This document shows positions 1-6,000 of a stretch of DNA of 64,000 bases, piece after piece. Every line of letters begins with the position of its first letter. Position 1 is the stretch's first letter. Location: NCBI RefSeq assembly GCF_057098645.1, contig NZ_CM169472.1; one strand, 5' to 3'. A program made the position numbers.

Positions 1-3000
1 TTCAGGTCAGGGTTTTCCCGCGCTAGTAATCTGGCGTACCTGCGAATATAGTCCAGCTCTTCCCGGTAGTAATCTTCTCCAGATGTCATAATATAACTCC
101 AGTGAATGTATGTGGTTTATATTATCTGATTCTGTACCTGAGAAATAATATTTCAGCCACAACAGGTTATCACAGAGTCAGAAGAACGGATGAACTGTTC
201 CGGTATTATTTTTACGGAATGATTAATCTGTAAATTTATGGCTTGACAATACGCTTTAGTGGAGGATGATTCCATTAATTAACCTAACGTCTGGTGATAA
301 CAAATAAGTCAGCCAAGTAACAAACAAATTACATTCTCACAAATACACTGACATTTGGTTTCCCCTGGCGAAATTTTTGTTGAGGGTATATTTATGTCAC
401 AGGCAGGTCTTCGGTTTACTGTTGATGTGGATGGTCAGCCCACTGAAACCTTTGCCGTCACTCGCTTTCACCTCTCGCAATCCTACTTCTCTCTGTTTAC
501 GCTGGAAATTAATACGGTCAGTGAACGGACCACCCTGAAAGCCAGTACACTACTGGAACAGACGGCACAATTAACTATCTGGCAGGGCAGCACACCGTTA
601 CGCTATGTGACAGGACTGATCGCCGGATTTGAACGCGGTGAATATGACGGGCGAAAAACCAGCTACAGCCTGACGGTTCGCCCCCCGCTCTGGCGCAGCA
701 GCCTACGGCAGAATTTTCGTCATTTTCAGCAGCAGGATATCCAGAGCATTATTCAGCGGCTGCTTGATGATAACCGGGTGGGAGATACAGCATACCTGTT
801 CGATGAAATGCATCCTGCGCGGGAGTTTTGCGTGCAGTACGGCGAAACCGACTATGAGTTTCTCTGCCGACTGATTGCAGAGGAAGGCATCTTTTTTTAT
901 GAGGAACATGCCCAAAAAGGCTCCCGGCAAAAGCTGGTATTTTGTGATCGCGTGGTCTGCCTGCCGGAGGCATTTCCTGTCCCCTTCAATCCGCAGCCCC
1001 GCGGCACATTCACCGAGTGTATCAACCGCTTTCGTTACAGCGCACAGATCCGCCCGGCTTATGTCATCACCAAAGATTACTCCTTTAAAGCCCCCCACTG
1101 GCAGGCCCGTTACCGTAATGATGCACCCGGTCTCAACGGGCAGCGCAACCAGTATGAAAAGCTGGATTACCCGGGCCGTTTCAAGGATGAACAACATGGA
1201 AAGGATTTTGTCCGCTATCAGACAGAGGGATGGCGCAACGATGCTGAAACGGCATCTGGGAGCAGTAATTCGCCAAAGCTGTGGCCGGGAGCACGTTTTA
1301 CACTGACTGAGCACCCTGCCGATGATCTGAACCGGGACTGGCAGGTAGTGGCAAGTGAACTGCATGGCGAACAACCGCAGGCCTCACCGGGAACACATAA
1401 AGAAGGTACCACGCTGGTAAATGAATTTCAGGCGATACCCGCAGATAAAACCTGGCGCTCTTCACCGCTACCCAAACCGAAAGTGGATGGTCCGCAGCCA
1501 GCGGTAGTCACCGGACCAGAGGGGGAGGAAATTTTTTGCGACGAACATGGTCGGGTAAGAGTTAAATTTTTGTGGGATCGCTATCACAAAGCGAATGAAG
1601 ACAGTTCATGCTGGATACGGGTGTCTCAGCCGTGGGCTGGTGCGGGTTTTGGTCATCTGGCTGTCCCACGAGTGGGTCAGGAGGTGATCGTGGACTTCCT
1701 GAACGGTGATCCGGATCAGCCGATTATCGTCGGGCGAACCTATCATCACGATAACCGCTCGCCAGGAAACCTGCCACTAACCAGAACACAAACAACGATT
1801 CGCTCAAAAACATATAAAGGGAACGGGTTTAATGAACTGCGGTTTGAAGATATGACCGGGCAGGAAGAGGTTTATATTCATGCGCAGAAGGATATGAATC
1901 ATGTTATCAACCATGATCGCACCAGCCTGACCAAACGGCATTCTGTGGACAAGGTACAGGGTAACAGTGCTGTCCTGGTGGATGAAAGCCAGGTGATGCA
2001 GGTTGGTGGCACTCAAAATACCAGTATTGGCGGAGACTATGTTTTGTCGGTAGGTAATCATTTTACGGATGGCTACCGTAAAATGAATCTGGCAGCTTTC
2101 CAGGATGATGCCGCCACCCTGTTGAAACAATCGGCATTTTTAGTCGGTGCTAACGGCATCATGCCTGGTATGGGAAACATGACCACTTTTGTACAGGGAA
2201 GTAGAACGGAACATATTAATCTGACAGACACCAGTTCAGTAATTGGTGCAAAACTGATCAATGCCGGAGAAATGATTTCAATCAGTGCCGGAACATTACT
2301 GAGTCTGACTTCTGGAGAGAATAGCAAGGAAACATGTGGTGGCGTAAAAATAATCCAGGCAGTTGATGGAATAGAATTACATACGGGAATGGCCTCTTTG
2401 ACATTAAGAAACAATGGTCATATAGAGATCAAAGGAATAAAAGTTACGATAGAAGGCAGTGATGATGTGACAGTAAAAACACAGGCTCTTAACATTCAAA
2501 GTGAATAACATAATGAAAAAAAGTTATTATTTATATTATTTGTGATTTTACTTATTGAGACTGGGATGCGGTTTACAATATGGAGGGAACTTAATAACAT
2601 CATTCCCACTGCGAAAGATTACAGGTTTGATATAATGGTATATGATCGCATTGACACTGGTTTTATGGGGTGTATTGGACATCATAAGGAGAACTACCTT
2701 ACTATCTCTTATACATTATGGTTAGCAAAAGATGTGCTATGGGCTGATATTATTTGTCAAAACAGAAGTGAATATGTGCGCATATTCACTCAGACGAATG
2801 AAAGATATAGAGCAAAAGATAATAGAGCTTTTGTGTATTATCACTGGAGTTTCAAGCACTGGACCTTTATCGATTCATATCGTGAACAACAGGAGAAAAT
2901 TAATGGCAAACATATACAGTCAGACAAATAGTGATGGTAAATTAGAAAAATGGACCCTTCGGCTAATAGTGTCAGCAGGAGAACACCCCTTACCTAAAAT

Positions 3001-6000
3001 TTCTGATATCGGGGTTGCAAGTTTAAAAATACATTATTGTCTCTGGAATGAAGAGGAATACAATGAAAAATTATCAGTTCCTCCAGTAATTGATGATATC
3101 CCTTCATTACAAAAAAATACTATTGTTTTTCCTAGCGAAGGTAATTTCCCGTGGTCAATATTTAGTAATGACTCGGTAATGTGGGAAACTCAAATCAGTC
3201 AGGATGAATTTGAAAATGCATACTGTCTGATGATTTGGGCAGATCCCATTGGTAGTGCTGCTTTTTTTGATGGTAGTCAATACTGGAAAGGTGTACTCAG
3301 AATTGATGATATGTCTACGCTAAAGGATAATAAAAAGGATGAAGGAAAGAATTATGTAAATCACATTACCGAGGTAAATCTGAAAATATCACAAGGGGTT
3401 ATTTCATATTTTATTGATTTGGTTGAAAAATACAGCTCCGATAGTTTTAATGAACTGAAACTAATACATGATGAAATAAAAAAAGGAAACAGAAATGCAC
3501 TGGGGAGATTAGGTGTAATGGGTCTATCCATAGGGGATAATGATACATGTTATATGTCTATGGCAGTTGATGTTTATGAAGCTAAAAACAGAAATGATAC
3601 AGGCAGGAAAGAAGATCTTTACGATGGCAATTATTATAATGAGCAACGTAAAGTAGCCTTCGGTCCTGATGGTGGTTGTATAAATAACAATCCAATATAT
3701 TACGACCCTGATCATACAACACCTTTCAGCCCTTATTTTGCAGTAAAAGTTAAATGGGGGCAATCAAACATTAGCATATATGATTTTAAATCACCAATAA
3801 AGCAACTATATGCCGAAATGATACGTATTGGTAATGATGGGCGTATATACAGTAATGAGGGCTTTTCTAATCTCAATTGGGGGATTATTGGAAAACAACT
3901 CGAACTTACAAGTAAAGATATGAAAGGTTTTGCTGCTCTTGATCCGAGGTCAAATCATGATGAACATGACGATGCAGCCACAGATATGGGGTATGAAATA
4001 GCAGGTTCGGCTACTTCAGATAAAAATTACCCAGTAAAATTTGACCGGAGGACATTATTTTTCCTCACACTAAAATCACTCAGGGAAAATGATCTCTTTA
4101 CTTGTTTAGGTGCTGAGACTTATAAAGCAAAACAGGAAGCTTTAAAGACAGATCAACAAACCAAAAGATGAAGATAAGCGCTGGAAATTTATGAATAGTG
4201 TTTATCTCATAATAAAAAATCAATGATTTTATCAACGGGAGTGCCGCCTATGCGAGCTGTTATTGTTAAATCATCACCAACATCTACAGGTGGAAAAGTT
4301 TTACTGGGAATAGATATCGTTACAAACGATGGCAACCCCGTTGCTCTTATAGGTATGCAGGCATCCTGTCCTGCCTGTAAAAAAGGTATCGGTGATATTG
4401 TTGCCAAAGGGCCACACCAACAATTTATTAATGGTATAGCGATTGCTCTTGAAGAGGATGTTGTTGCCTGTGGCTGTCCTGAAGGAAGTAATATAGTTTT
4501 ACCATTGACTAAATTGACACAAATTAAATGAGAATCGGTCCCGTTACAATAAACACCTTACTATTAAAATTATGGACCTATTTATATATTAATTCCTTTA
4601 CCCCATAAAGCGGTAAAGGAATCATGTATCATTGGCACTAATAATAAGTCTGAGCACAGATAGTCAATTGTATCACGACGTCTGTTTCAGGCGGCGGGCA
4701 TACTGGTAAGTCGAAACACACCCGTCGTTGTTTGCATCAAGATAATCCGCCCACCACGGCTTCATCTCGCTCCGTTCCTCCAGATATTCAGCCTAGTGAA
4801 TATAAGCAGTCCGAACACGGTTTCTTTCCTGATAGCTCATCTATTTCCGATGGTTTCTTTGCTCCATAACTCCGATCACCGGGAAAATTTTGATTTAGCA
4901 TTTATCAGTCAAACAAAAGGTGGTCAGTCTGGTGGTCTTGACAATCTCAATTTTTTGTTTTAGCTTACCAATCAGCCAGTTAATGGCTACGGCGATCCCA
5001 GTCAGAGGAGCCAAATTCTAAAAATTCGCTTTTTTACCGCAATGTCACTGACCTTAGTTGAACATTGTTTTTTAACGGATAGCGGGTTTTTAACATCTTA
5101 AGCGCCCTCGACCTTTATGGGTGAGGGCGTTTTGCTATGAACGCCATCACCATTTTCCCCTCGATTATAAAACTTGAGTTATTCAGTAGTCTCCCCTCTT
5201 GCAACTCACACCCAAAACTGCCTAACGAAAAGTTATTAATTTTCAATCATATTGCTATCAGGATTTACATTTTTTCGCTGTGCTAGAAAGGGCGCATTTA
5301 TGTTAGCTCGTTCAGGGAAGGTAAGCATGGCTACGAAGAAGAGAAGTGGAGAAGAGATAAATGACCGACAAATCTTATGCGGGATGGGAATTAAACTACG
5401 CCGCTTAACTGCGGGTATCTGCCTGATAACTCAACTTGTGTTCCCTATGGCTGCGGCAGCACAAGGTGTGGTAAACGCCGCAACCCAACAACCAGTTCCT
5501 GCACAAATTGCCATTGCAAATGCCAATACGGTGCCCTACACCCTTGGAGCGCTGGAATCGGCCCAAAGCGTTGCCGAACGTTTCGGTATTTCGGTGGCTG
5601 AGTTACGCAAACTCAACCAGTTTCGTACGTTTGCTCGAGGTTTTGATAATGTCCGCCAGGGTGATGAACTGGATGTCCCGGCACAAGTTAGTGAAAATAA
5701 TTTAACCCCGCCACCGGGTAATAGCAGTGGCAACCTTGAGCAACAAATAGCCAGTACTTCACAGCAAATCGGGTCTCTGCTCGCCGAGGATATGAACAGC
5801 GAGCAAGCGGCAAATATGGCGCGTGGATGGGCCTCTTCTCAGGCTTCAGGCGCAATGACAGACTGGTTAAGCCGCTTCAGTACCGCAAGAATCACGCTGG
5901 GCGTGGATGAAGATTTTAGCCTGAAGAACTCCCAGTTCGATTTTCTCCATCCGTGGTATGAAACGCCTGATAATCTCTTTTTCAGTCAGCATACTCTCCA

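Follow-up and report, generated by a model that had tools for sequence, protein, structure and literature searches.

The AT-rich DNA that begins near the end of vgrG and runs through the PAAR gene is most probably (roughly 70%, in our estimate) the variable part of a T6SS spike locus, which would comprise the vgrG tip and a swappable pair of genes for a toxin and a probable immunity protein, together with the adjoining gene for the PAAR cap. The window, that is, the whole stretch of 64,000 nucleotides that was analysed, starts in the intergenic region upstream of vgrG; the features of the locus are collected in Table 1. In the proposed mechanism, the large protein would dock via its beta-sandwich on the matching VgrG tip and leave the cell as part of the fired spike, its cognate immunity partner would be the small protein, and the low GC would make the cassette a natural, if putative, target of H-NS. 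Cassette swapping is a known kind of process; the toxin family found here was previously unannotated. What had appeared as a compositional oddity can thus be described as a genetic unit whose limits are mapped.

Table 1. Features of the vgrG-PAAR locus (positions in the window)
Feature	Coordinates	Strand	Remarks
Divergent intergenic region tssF/vgrG	1..393	.	AT-rich; GC 0.376
vgrG (tssI) conserved core, codons 1-550	394..2042	+	5' homology arm for the exchange; domains: gp27-like, OB-fold, gp5 beta-helix
vgrG variable 3' tip, codons 551-704	2043..2508	+	GC falls from 0.458 to 0.38; GC3 0.355
Recombining cassette (vgrG tip, small and large genes)	2043..4262	.	delimited by identity breakpoints
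Small ORF, 139 aa in most O145 genomes	2513..2931	+	N-terminal membrane helix and small alpha/beta domain (predicted)
Large ORF, 422 aa	2903..4171	+	N-terminal beta-sandwich (~residues 1-165) and C-terminal helical domain (predicted)
PAAR gene, 93 aa	4250..4531	+	spike-sharpening cap; GC 0.40, GC3 0.22; downstream homology arm

Base composition and the limits of the exchanged unit

By composition count, GC is 0.355 at 2509-4560, compared with 0.532 in vgrG (394-1800), 0.500 in the downstream adhesin gene and 0.470 in the whole window; put differently, A+T amounts to 64.5% across the 2 kb of the block and to 53% in the window. The 2,041-bp segment with the lowest GC in all 64 kb begins at 2201, and about 1% of the segments of this length have GC of 0.36 or less. 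The difference between the block and vgrG resides mainly at synonymous sites (GC3 of 0.253 in the large ORF, 0.223 in PAAR and 0.361 in the small ORF, but 0.529 in vgrG codons 1-550), and the window-relative codon adaptation index is 0.63 in the block, 0.706 +/- 0.051 in the other long ORFs and 0.729 in the vgrG core. The profile against the flanking genes, a check set beforehand, thus yields a clear difference in GC, GC3 and codon adaptation index alike. The first-pass annotation, which described an AT-rich block extending from the vgrG stop codon to about 4560, was correct as to the strength of the AT-richness; its sharp step at the stop codon (2506-2508) and its uniformly ordinary vgrG did not hold up. 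GC is already down to 0.458 at 1801-2250 and to 0.38 at 2251-2508, and the 50-codon blocks of vgrG from 2194 and 2344 have GC3 of 0.34 and 0.28, respectively. Because GC falls inside the gene, vgrG is not uniformly ordinary in composition and its stop codon is not the boundary. Low GC by itself is not unique to the vgrG cargo spot, since the window contains further AT-rich patches (about 14.5-16.3 kb, 19.2-20.7 kb and 56.9-64 kb).

The two genes that flank the pair are identified by their domains. The vgrG product matches TIGR03361 (2e-176, 587.6 bits, cutoff 186) and the Pfam domains Phage_GPD (5.1e-78), Phage_base_V (1.4e-15) and Gp5_trimer_C (4.1e-23), and on these matches is the T6SS spike protein VgrG/TssI. 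The PAAR product matches PF05488 (PAAR_motif; 6.5e-16, 58.8 bits, cutoff 27) and, given this match above threshold and the proximity of its gene to vgrG, is classed as a PAAR spike-cap protein; with the NCBIfam T6SS_PAAR_dom equivalog, it scores 17 bits (cutoff 124). In the annotation of matching genomes, tssF-tssG lie divergently upstream of vgrG, with tssF outside the window on the minus strand. The intergenic region is likely to contain the promoter of a vgrG-small-large-PAAR operon; its best sigma-70-like matches, at 243-270 (+) and 234-205 (-), are consensus matches alone.

The locus was compared with the same locus in four other E. coli genomes. In a sliding 150-column comparison of O145 with E7-1N7, DNA identity is 93-99% up to 2042, 39-77% at 2043-4262 and 91-97% from PAAR on, and the megablast matches of the variant genomes end at query positions 2033-2075, within vgrG, and resume at PAAR. 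The dS values follow the same partition: 0.13 in the vgrG core, 1.40-1.46 or saturated in the middle (1.46 for the vgrG tip, with 67-77% DNA identity to E7-1N7) and 0.11 in PAAR (93-95% DNA identity to E7-1N7). The synonymous divergence of the middle segment, approximately 10 times that of the flanks, implies that old alleles have been swapped in by recombination. The comparison of AHM with the Salmonella b locus gives dS of 2.57 in the vgrG core and 0.67 in the small gene. PAAR itself is AT-rich yet conserved among the E. coli loci, its product (WP_001202999.1) being identical in O145, MB30 and AHM8C212RI despite their differing cargo, and therefore belongs to the homology arm, outside the swapped unit. 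Judged by these breakpoints, the cassette is exchanged as a unit by homologous recombination, with the vgrG core and PAAR serving as arms. Modular exchange of effector cassettes, proposed earlier from composition, is thus supported by identity and dS, with the boundary moved from the stop codon of vgrG to about codon 550 (~2043).

VgrG itself is a mosaic, with the N-part following the host and the C-part following the cargo type. Its C-terminal ~105-150 residues track cargo type, not host: E. coli E7/AHM and Salmonella b, which share a cargo type, are 74% identical in the N-part and 81-83% in the C-part (residues 600-704), and O145 and E7/AHM are 66% identical over the same residues, whereas Salmonella a and b are 95% identical in the N-part and 61% in the C-part. 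No Pfam domain, and no TTR or DUF2345 match above threshold, was found in the tip, which we infer to be the effector docking surface.

The leading alternative, to which we assign a distinctly minor share of the probability, is that vgrG is a native, ordinary gene behind whose stop codon foreign cargo was added, with unrelated cassettes at the corresponding site elsewhere and with silencing by H-NS. The AT-rich block and its distinct codon usage are real, and the locus does vary between strains, as this reading would have it. However, both the compositional and the recombination boundary lie near 2043, inside vgrG, not at 2508, and the cassettes that follow vgrG elsewhere are not other kinds of cargo but very divergent homologous alleles of one family, the pair of small and large genes (31% and 45% amino acid identity). 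Members of this two-gene family stand behind vgrG in loci from Rahnella and Atlantibacter as well as from E. coli and Salmonella. Neither does AT-richness point to a recent arrival. Cassette GC is 0.32-0.37 in all nine loci from these four genera, even between alleles with saturated dS, and PAAR is AT-rich although it is not exchanged. Since AT-richness is kept in every host and allele, it does not date the acquisition. By these comparisons, the alleles are old, extend across genus boundaries and are uniformly AT-rich, and we infer that low GC is a long-standing trait of the circulating cassette pool rather than a sign that the cassette entered E. coli recently. Stable AT-richness can thus be a long-term property of a cassette and need not signal recent import.

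As for silencing, H-NS has an established preference for AT-rich DNA, and the block has the kilobase-scale AT content, far above average, that is expected of H-NS-silenced DNA. The 10-bp high-affinity H-NS motif has 88 matches window-wide, with 82 +/- 10 expected, and five matches with 2 mismatches within the block, and is an uninformative proxy. In enterobacteria, H-NS is reported to act as a repressor of both T6SS loci and AT-rich islands (PMC6033998), in line with the foreign-cargo reading. Putative silencing of the block, drawn from the AT preference, is no more than a reasonable expectation.

The large protein and its probable immunity partner

The C-terminal domain of the large protein is predicted to be helical and contains the toxin-core residues D294-x-K296, G310-N311, D347 and D356; D294-F-K296 and G310-N311 are invariant in the family, and D347 and D356 are acidic and invariant. 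Ntox44, a predicted RNase with an all-alpha fold, is defined by the motifs DxK, GNxxxG and DxxxD (Zhang et al. 2012, PMC3482391). The window protein reads GNDGR, with the second glycine not at +5, and the exact DxxxD spacing is not clear. Pfam Ntox44 (PF15607) gives no match to the window protein or to any of the 23 family members, even at E <= 10, and no solved structure matches the Ntox44-type domain. The link is transitive: the large-protein profile finds proteins that pass Ntox44 (P0047, 62.5 bits; P0042, 53.2; P0048, 52.6; cutoff 24), and hhalign aligns the family with these distant relatives over 308 columns (probability 99.8%, E 4e-29). Both of the distant relatives with readable contigs are encoded directly 3' of a vgrG. 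Through these relatives, the large protein is classed as a divergent Ntox44-type toxin and is a probable T6SS cargo effector. It shares with Ntox44 a C-terminal toxin domain predicted to be all-alpha, the DxK and GN motifs and the T6SS association, but falls below the Pfam model, being linked by a profile-profile match, and would travel as separate cargo, with a conserved beta-sandwich at its N-terminus and no Rhs, PAAR or Hcp fusion. The subfamily is unannotated and very rare (27-31 sequence clusters in billions of proteins); along with a candidate immunity family, it extends the range of T6SS cargo known from E. coli and Salmonella.

The small ORF overlaps the large ORF by 29 nt, and its product has no match in Pfam, NCBIfam, PADLOC or a PDB fold search. 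The family alignment contains the invariant residues E16, R20, Y37, Y62, Y67, W70, C82, Y110, W112, S113 and F114. The Kyte-Doolittle 19-residue maximum is 2.19, at residues 5-23, and the AF2 model contains a helix at residues 2-30 (pLDDT 67.6, a modest confidence); the N-terminal helix probably lies in the inner membrane, with the protein facing the periplasm. In the window, alignment with O145 RM9872 shows that the A-tract at 2516-2522 is A7, not A8. Reading from the ATG at 2513 therefore ends at the stop codon 2543-2545, and the rest of the frame restarts at GTG 2542, yielding a form that lacks most of the hydrophobic segment, including the Kyte-Doolittle maximum.

Across the loci, the small gene co-varies with the toxin gene. 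Intact small genes that are duplicated or orphaned occur at four loci (L003, L009, L010 and L011), with tandem, divergent copies in MB30 and Rahnella laticis, and vgrG 3' fragments precede the extra or orphan cassettes in L010 and L011. The Atlantibacter locus L010 encompasses two intact orphan small genes 3' of PAAR, flanked by remnants of the vgrG tip and of PAAR, and in the S. enterica locus L011, an intact small_a gene stands beside a disrupted large_a gene. The window itself contains no orphan or arrayed small genes. On this evidence, what remains of a displaced cassette is a piece of the vgrG 3' end, a small gene that is still intact and a large gene that has decayed or been truncated. 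In L011, it is the cassette with the broken toxin that adjoins the intact vgrG, an arrangement that does not fit the simple picture of the newest allele being attached and active. Because the intact orphan copies adjoin decayed toxin genes, the small protein is probably the immunity protein for the large protein. With a hypervariable pair between conserved flanks, recombining alleles and, at other loci, orphan copies of the putative immunity gene, the locus is classed as a probable polymorphic T6SS effector-immunity cassette. Its candidate immunity gene comes before the toxin gene; an immunity gene upstream of the toxin is the less usual order.

T6SS adaptor genes usually lie between vgrG and the effector gene, which is where the small gene sits, and its product could instead be an adaptor, chaperone or co-effector, with immunity absent (for example, if the effector is anti-eukaryotic) or encoded elsewhere. 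Known T6SS adaptors (DUF4123, DUF1795 and DUF2169) are cytosolic and conserved, unlike the hypervariable and membrane-anchored small protein. Admittedly, no immunity family is listed for Ntox44 (PMC3482391), and a membrane-anchored protein is an odd match for a predicted RNase; furthermore, the small gene is frameshifted in the window, whereas the toxin gene is intact. Yet, the frameshift would be tolerable in a host without a firing apparatus, and neither the persistence of intact orphan small genes where the large gene has decayed nor the tandem divergent duplicates suit an adaptor, so that we regard this role as unlikely.

If the small protein is indeed the immunity partner, the predicted cytoplasmic RNase activity of the toxin and the probable periplasmic orientation of the immunity protein are at odds, and the error may lie in the predicted activity or in the role given to the small protein. 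The comparison of the small protein with the downstream membrane protein of the distant relatives gives a non-significant homology (probability 6.5%).

Divergence, decay and mobility of the cassette

Diversifying selection classically acts on toxin-immunity pairs, and the middle segment might have diverged in place, through an arms race acting on a vertically inherited pair without exchange; dN/dS of the small and large genes, 0.11-0.32, is indeed somewhat above that of the vgrG core, 0.05-0.12. Nevertheless, we consider this very improbable: dN/dS is at most 0.32, well below 1, wherever dS is not saturated, the excess divergence extends to synonymous sites, the cassette types cross genera against the vgrG-core phylogeny, and the dissociated vgrG-tip fragments with extra cassettes represent insertion events. 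It is hardly more plausible that, instead of a toxin pair, the two proteins are diverged components of the T6SS structure (for example TssE-like with TssK-like, or else TssJ-like) and make the tssF-tssG-vgrG-PAAR set complete, given that the fold matches are weak and cover ~100 residues of generic beta-sandwich, followed by pilin and CBM folds, that the large protein has no lipoprotein signal and is linked to Ntox44 in its C-terminal half, that 31-45% identity is not expected of structural parts where the VgrG core is 95% identical, and that in Rahnella laticis the cassette occurs with neither tssF nor tssG.

The swappable pair shows multiple forms of decay within O145: the A7 slip in the small gene, an A7-to-A6 slip at 3111 in RM8995-C1, and IS3 insertions or a deletion of the cassette. 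Because O145:H28 is reported to have no complete T6SS (PMC5567499, PMC9144400), the module probably cannot fire in these bacteria, which suggests an inactive, decaying passenger.

A more far-reaching conjecture, which we hold to be doubtful, is that tssG-tssF/vgrG-small-large-PAAR is a mobile, self-contained kit, a wedge plus a loaded spike, that inserts at varied chromosomal sites across genera and whose own wedge proteins mount the spike and toxin on any recipient T6SS, the small protein being the first Ntox44-type immunity family. If the latter part were true, these toxins would have the cell envelope as their site of action and would not be RNases.

Relationship to known systems

The variable C-terminus of VgrG determines which effector is loaded in Agrobacterium (VgrG1/2 with Tde1/2) and in enteroaggregative E. 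coli (EAEC; VgrG1 with Tle1). The locus described here resembles these in the variable C-terminal region, to which cargo specificity would be assigned, and in the effector gene that lies directly 3' of vgrG, and differs in that the tip, a putative docking segment, has no recognisable domain.

In V. cholerae, T6SS effector-immunity modules are exchanged, with sequential displacement of effectors (Kirchberger et al. 2017, PMC5361080). There, as here, conserved T6SS genes flank variable modules that are moved horizontally by homologous recombination, and incoming modules displace effectors while the old immunity genes are kept as arrays. In contrast to the V. cholerae modules, the putative immunity gene here is 5' of the effector gene, the exchanged unit takes in ~150 vgrG codons, a remnant of the vgrG 3' end accompanies the displaced units, and the hosts are Enterobacterales with another, unannotated toxin family.

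A parallel in process is the displacement of Rhs C-terminal tips in Enterobacteriaceae, which have distinct GC signatures (Jackson et al. 2009, PMC2935791). Both cases involve a conserved core and a variable tip of distinct GC, dissociated core fragments with tips downstream, and tips that belong to an old, conserved pool rather than evolving fast, and our reasoning from dS parallels the Rhs argument. In Rhs, core and toxin form one polypeptide with the toxin as its C-terminal tip, whereas here the toxin is a separate ORF and the VgrG tip would provide docking. The ORFs of the cassette region contain no RHS repeats, and by this measure the locus is not an Rhs element. The process nonetheless resembles Rhs displacement, with a VgrG tip that is inherited along with its cargo and displaced in the manner of Rhs tips, of which this locus offers a clean example.

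Gene content and base composition

The AT-rich block belongs to a series of plus-strand genes in the order vgrG, small ORF, large ORF, PAAR gene. The small and large proteins have no match in Pfam, NCBIfam or PADLOC scans, and a PDB sequence search with the family profile returned nothing meaningful. Structural roles for these proteins, as TssE, TssK or TssJ, were considered and rejected. The promoter scan gave no excess of matches (16 vs 13.4 +/- 3.4 in shuffles), and a terminator scan of the plus strand at 973-5278 found no terminator-like site except for a weak one at 1630, within vgrG. 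An inverted repeat downstream of PAAR may be a hairpin that ends or processes the transcript; no T-run follows it, and the terminator scan left it uncalled. The adhesin gene beyond it is intact in some related genomes (~2,660 aa) and carries IS3 at different positions in others.

Features of the AT-rich block and of other parts of the window
Feature	Coordinates	Strand	Remarks
vgrG	394-2508	+	gp27-like, OB-fold and gp5 domains; TIGR03361, 2e-176
Small ORF	begins 4 nt past vgrG stop	+	139 aa in most O145 genomes
Large ORF, 422 aa	2903-4171	+	29-nt overlap with small ORF
PAAR gene, 93 aa	4250-4531	+	Pfam, 6.5e-16
Inverted repeat, perfect, 10 bp	4593-4621		TTCCTTTACC ... GGTAAAGGAA, 9-nt loop; ~60 bp past PAAR stop
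Giant inverse-autotransporter / Ig-like adhesin gene	5252-14640		directly 3' of PAAR; IAT_beta, Big_1, Invasin_D3
IS3	~8186-9399		splits adhesin gene
Further AT-rich patches (two)	14500-16300; 19250-20750		GC 0.33-0.39 (500-bp windows)
ORF in first patch	15222-16274	-	family 9 glycosyltransferase by position in related genomes
Second, larger AT-rich gene cluster	56949-63988	-	six long ORFs in a run, GC3 0.25-0.36; right end of window

The first-pass annotation placed a sharp shift to AT-rich DNA at the vgrG stop codon, after a vgrG of ordinary composition. The shift is real because both the GC and the codon-usage profiles differ from the flanks. The GC content is 0.355 at 2509-4560 vs 0.532 in vgrG at 394-1800, compared with 0.500 in the adhesin gene downstream and 0.470 in the entire 64-kb window; no 2,041-bp segment of the whole sequence has a lower GC than the one beginning at 2201, and a GC of 0.36 or less is reached by about 1% of segments of this length. 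The effect is at synonymous positions, where vgrG codons 1-550 have a GC3 of 0.529 but the large ORF has 0.253, the small ORF 0.361 and PAAR 0.223. On a codon adaptation index calibrated with typical ORFs of the window, the cassette genes score 0.63, the background 0.706 +/- 0.051 and the vgrG core 0.729. The left edge of the block, however, had been misplaced by ~460 bp. The GC drop begins within vgrG (0.458 at 1801-2250 and 0.38 at 2251-2508), where the 50-codon blocks starting at 2194 and 2344 have GC3 values of just 0.34 and 0.28, so that the stop codon (2506-2508) is not the position of the step and the composition of vgrG is not uniform.

The same profile is found in all 9 loci compared: GC is 0.50-0.57 in the first 1,400 bp of vgrG, 0.36-0.45 in its last 300 bp and 0.32-0.37 in the cassette. 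Given that the cassette has low GC in every locus and allele, including those with mutually saturated synonymous sites, AT-richness is a stable property of the family. It is an old, conserved trait of the cassette and does not point to a recent import. The AT-richness is comparable to that of typical H-NS targets, and repression of T6SS loci by H-NS is known from enterobacteria (PMC6033998 and other papers); a count of high-affinity H-NS motifs was uninformative.

Allelic exchange across the vgrG tip

The cassette is present in 27 of the 5,426 complete E. coli genomes, and a vgrG of this type in 29, nearly all of them O145:H28. Four unrelated E. coli strains, MB30, AHM8C212RI, AHM8C160RI and E7-1N7, carry the same locus. 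In all four, the megablast match to vgrG ends at query position 2033-2075 of 2115 and resumes at PAAR, and the layout in between is identical, with the small gene followed by the large gene. Protein identity to O145 is 29-32% for the small protein and 42-45% for the large one, compared with ~90% for VgrG and 93-100% for PAAR. In a sliding comparison of O145 with E7-1N7, DNA identity is 93-99% at 93-2042, 67-77% at 2043-2492, 39-69% at 2493-4262 and 91-97% at 4263-5308. The synonymous divergence between these two strains (Nei-Gojobori dS) follows the same boundaries, being 0.13 in vgrG codons 1-550, 1.46 in codons 551-704, 1.40 in the large gene, saturated in the small gene and 0.11 in PAAR.

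Because dN/dS does not exceed 0.32 wherever dS is unsaturated, purifying selection operates throughout, and in combination with the tenfold synonymous jump, this rules out a fast-evolving resident middle segment and identifies that segment as an old, separate allele recombined between younger flanks. Whole-gene dN/dS, calculated from few alleles, gives no sign of positive selection. The proposed modular exchange of cargo is borne out as exchange, except that the module starts inside vgrG rather than after its stop codon. The cargo that follows the same vgrG in other E. coli genomes differs in sequence but consists of alleles of one probable toxin-immunity family and not of cassettes of different kinds.

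The large-protein family is tiny, with 31 clusters found by a k-mer-seeded search of 5.8 billion proteins and 27 matches when 1.84 billion representatives were scanned exhaustively with a HMMER profile. Its close named members come from E. coli, Salmonella enterica (including subsp. salamae), Atlantibacter and Rahnella. All retrieved loci share the gene order vgrG (704 aa), small gene (one or two copies), large gene, PAAR. The VgrG protein itself is a mosaic. Residues 1-570 track the host, with 95-97% identity among E. coli strains and 74-77% to Salmonella or Atlantibacter. Residues 600-704 track the cargo type: the E7-1N7 and AHM8C strains of E. coli are 81-83% identical in this region to Salmonella loci with the 'b' cassette allele, and O145 is just 66% identical to the same E. 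coli strains. Similarly, VgrGs of Salmonella 'a' and 'b' loci are 95% identical in the N-terminal part and 61% in the C-terminal part. Between the E. coli AHM8C and Salmonella 'b' loci, the vgrG core has a dS of 2.57, whereas the tip has 0.95 and the small gene 0.67; the cassette and the vgrG tip therefore pass jointly from genus to genus.

A predicted Ntox44-type toxin and its candidate immunity protein

Profile-profile comparison of the window family with 13 of the distant relatives that the exhaustive scan had turned up yields a 99.8% probability (E 4e-29) over 308 columns that cover both domains. All 10 scanned distant relatives (344-797 aa) match Pfam PF15607, Ntox44, 8 of them above the gathering score (best E 5.6e-17), and the match coincides exactly with the segment that aligns to the most conserved motif of the large family. 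The large protein of the window falls below the Pfam Ntox44 model, so its membership rests on this transitive link. Zhang et al. 2012 (PMC3482391) defined Ntox44 as a toxin domain of all-alpha fold, marked by DxK, GNxxxG and DxxxD motifs and exported via T2SS, T6SS or T7SS, and list no immunity family for it; the predicted RNase or nuclease role has been repeated by later papers. The invariant residues of the window family are D294-F-K296, G310-N311, D347 and D356. In both distant relatives with readable short contigs, the gene likewise lies directly 3' of a vgrG, and the product of the next gene has an N-terminal membrane helix.

The large-gene alleles of two other E. coli loci (L005:10490-11644 and L004:11028-12212) start with MGNIFSS, reminiscent of the MGxxxS signal for N-myristoylation in eukaryotes; the window carries the O145 allele, whose start, MANIYSQ, has no glycine. 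The resemblance to the eukaryotic signal is probably a coincidence, but it would gain weight if eukaryotic cells were the target of the toxin.

In most O145 genomes, the small protein has the N-terminus MKKKLLFILFVILLIETGMRF. Since the k-mer-seeded search returned this protein alone, the family was assembled from neighbouring ORFs. Its 11 members share an N-terminal hydrophobic helix and, after it, a variable alpha/beta domain; an invariant motif closes each of the two, IE-x-GMR the helix and Y-x-WSF the domain. The structure model of the small protein, of modest confidence (pLDDT 67.6), has no fold match. Co-variation with the toxin, gene overlap, duplication in some loci and intact orphans beside a decayed toxin point to a putative immunity protein. 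Against this assignment stand the upstream position of the gene and the membrane anchor, which is odd for the partner of a predicted RNase, as well as the lack of significant homology (probability 6.5%) of the small family to the membrane protein encoded downstream in L016, a locus of a distant relative. The gene for that membrane protein (L016:1946-2428) follows the toxin gene, and its product combines an N-terminal membrane helix with an 'LWSFKQSKF' motif resembling the small family's invariant YHWSF.

A LysM peptidoglycan-binding domain in one distant relative, P0048, together with the anchored partner proteins, hints at the envelope, away from RNA, as a possible target of these toxins.

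Genomic context, decay and displaced cassettes

The E. coli locus lies within an island that carries a P4-type integrase and is located at a tRNA-Asn gene beside mtfA; full-length tssF and tssG lie in divergent orientation upstream of vgrG, outside the window. The tssG-tssF/vgrG-small-large-PAAR unit occurs at unrelated sites in Salmonella (cpoB-nadA) and Atlantibacter. These six genes travel as a unit, with tssF and tssG seen in L002:3697-6581, L007, L008, L010, L011, L013 and L017; no other T6SS core genes adjoin it in E. coli, Salmonella or Atlantibacter, and none were found near the E. coli locus. A portable 'wedge plus spike' kit of this sort is not known to have been described. The interval between the integrase remnants and tssG (L002:2226-3361 and equivalents, outside the window) holds genes for a HigA-type antitoxin and a winged-helix HTH_35 protein, besides a 153-aa ORF without a Pfam match.

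According to published comparisons, O145:H28 has no complete T6SS: it lacks the O157 T6SS island OI-7 (PMC5567499) and possesses homologs of just 5 of the 22 T6SS-2 genes and of none from T6SS-1 or T6SS-3 (PMC9144400). The A-tract behind the small-gene ATG has seven residues in the window and two Korean isolates, against eight in most O145 genomes, so that the ATG at 2513 meets a stop after nine codons. That stop, the TGA at 2543-2545, shares bases with a GTG at 2542, the sole point at which the small frame can restart, and most of the hydrophobic segment is lost. The shorter tract could represent true slippage, phase variation or a homopolymer assembly error. Elsewhere, an A7-to-A6 slip at window position 3111 (poly-A tract 3105-3111) splits the large gene of RM8995-C1 (L018) into two ORFs, IS3 interrupts the cassette of RM9154-C1 and the vgrG of FWSEC0002, and RM12581 and RM13514 have lost the whole cassette in association with IS3. 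The module has suffered at least five independent lesions in one clade of ~25 O145-type genomes, in line with a module that is unable to fire.

Traces of DISPLACEMENT are found in S. enterica (L011) and Atlantibacter (L010). In L011, intact vgrG and an intact type-a small gene are followed by a type-a large gene, disrupted by a frameshift or internal deletion, to which a piece of a vgrG C-terminus (residues ~557-704) is fused, and the array ends with an intact type-c small-large pair and PAAR. In L010, two additional intact small genes, 80-84% identical to the E7-1N7/AHM8C type of E. coli, lie 3' of PAAR. A vgrG 3' remnant precedes the first of them (tblastn), raw translation reveals a short vgrG-end-like peptide before and a large-gene stub after each, and a PAAR fragment closes the array. 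MB30 has two divergent small genes with IS5 between them, and Rahnella laticis has two in tandem; the 64 kb of the window contain a single cassette and no orphan small genes.

Taken together, the sequence comparisons identify the system as a VgrG-linked polymorphic effector-immunity cassette that diversifies by Rhs-like displacement, with a predicted Ntox44-type toxin, hitherto unannotated, and a candidate family of immunity proteins. In the effector-immunity modules of V. cholerae, old immunity genes are retained when effectors are displaced (PMC5361080), and the pattern of displaced cassettes described here resembles that of these modules.
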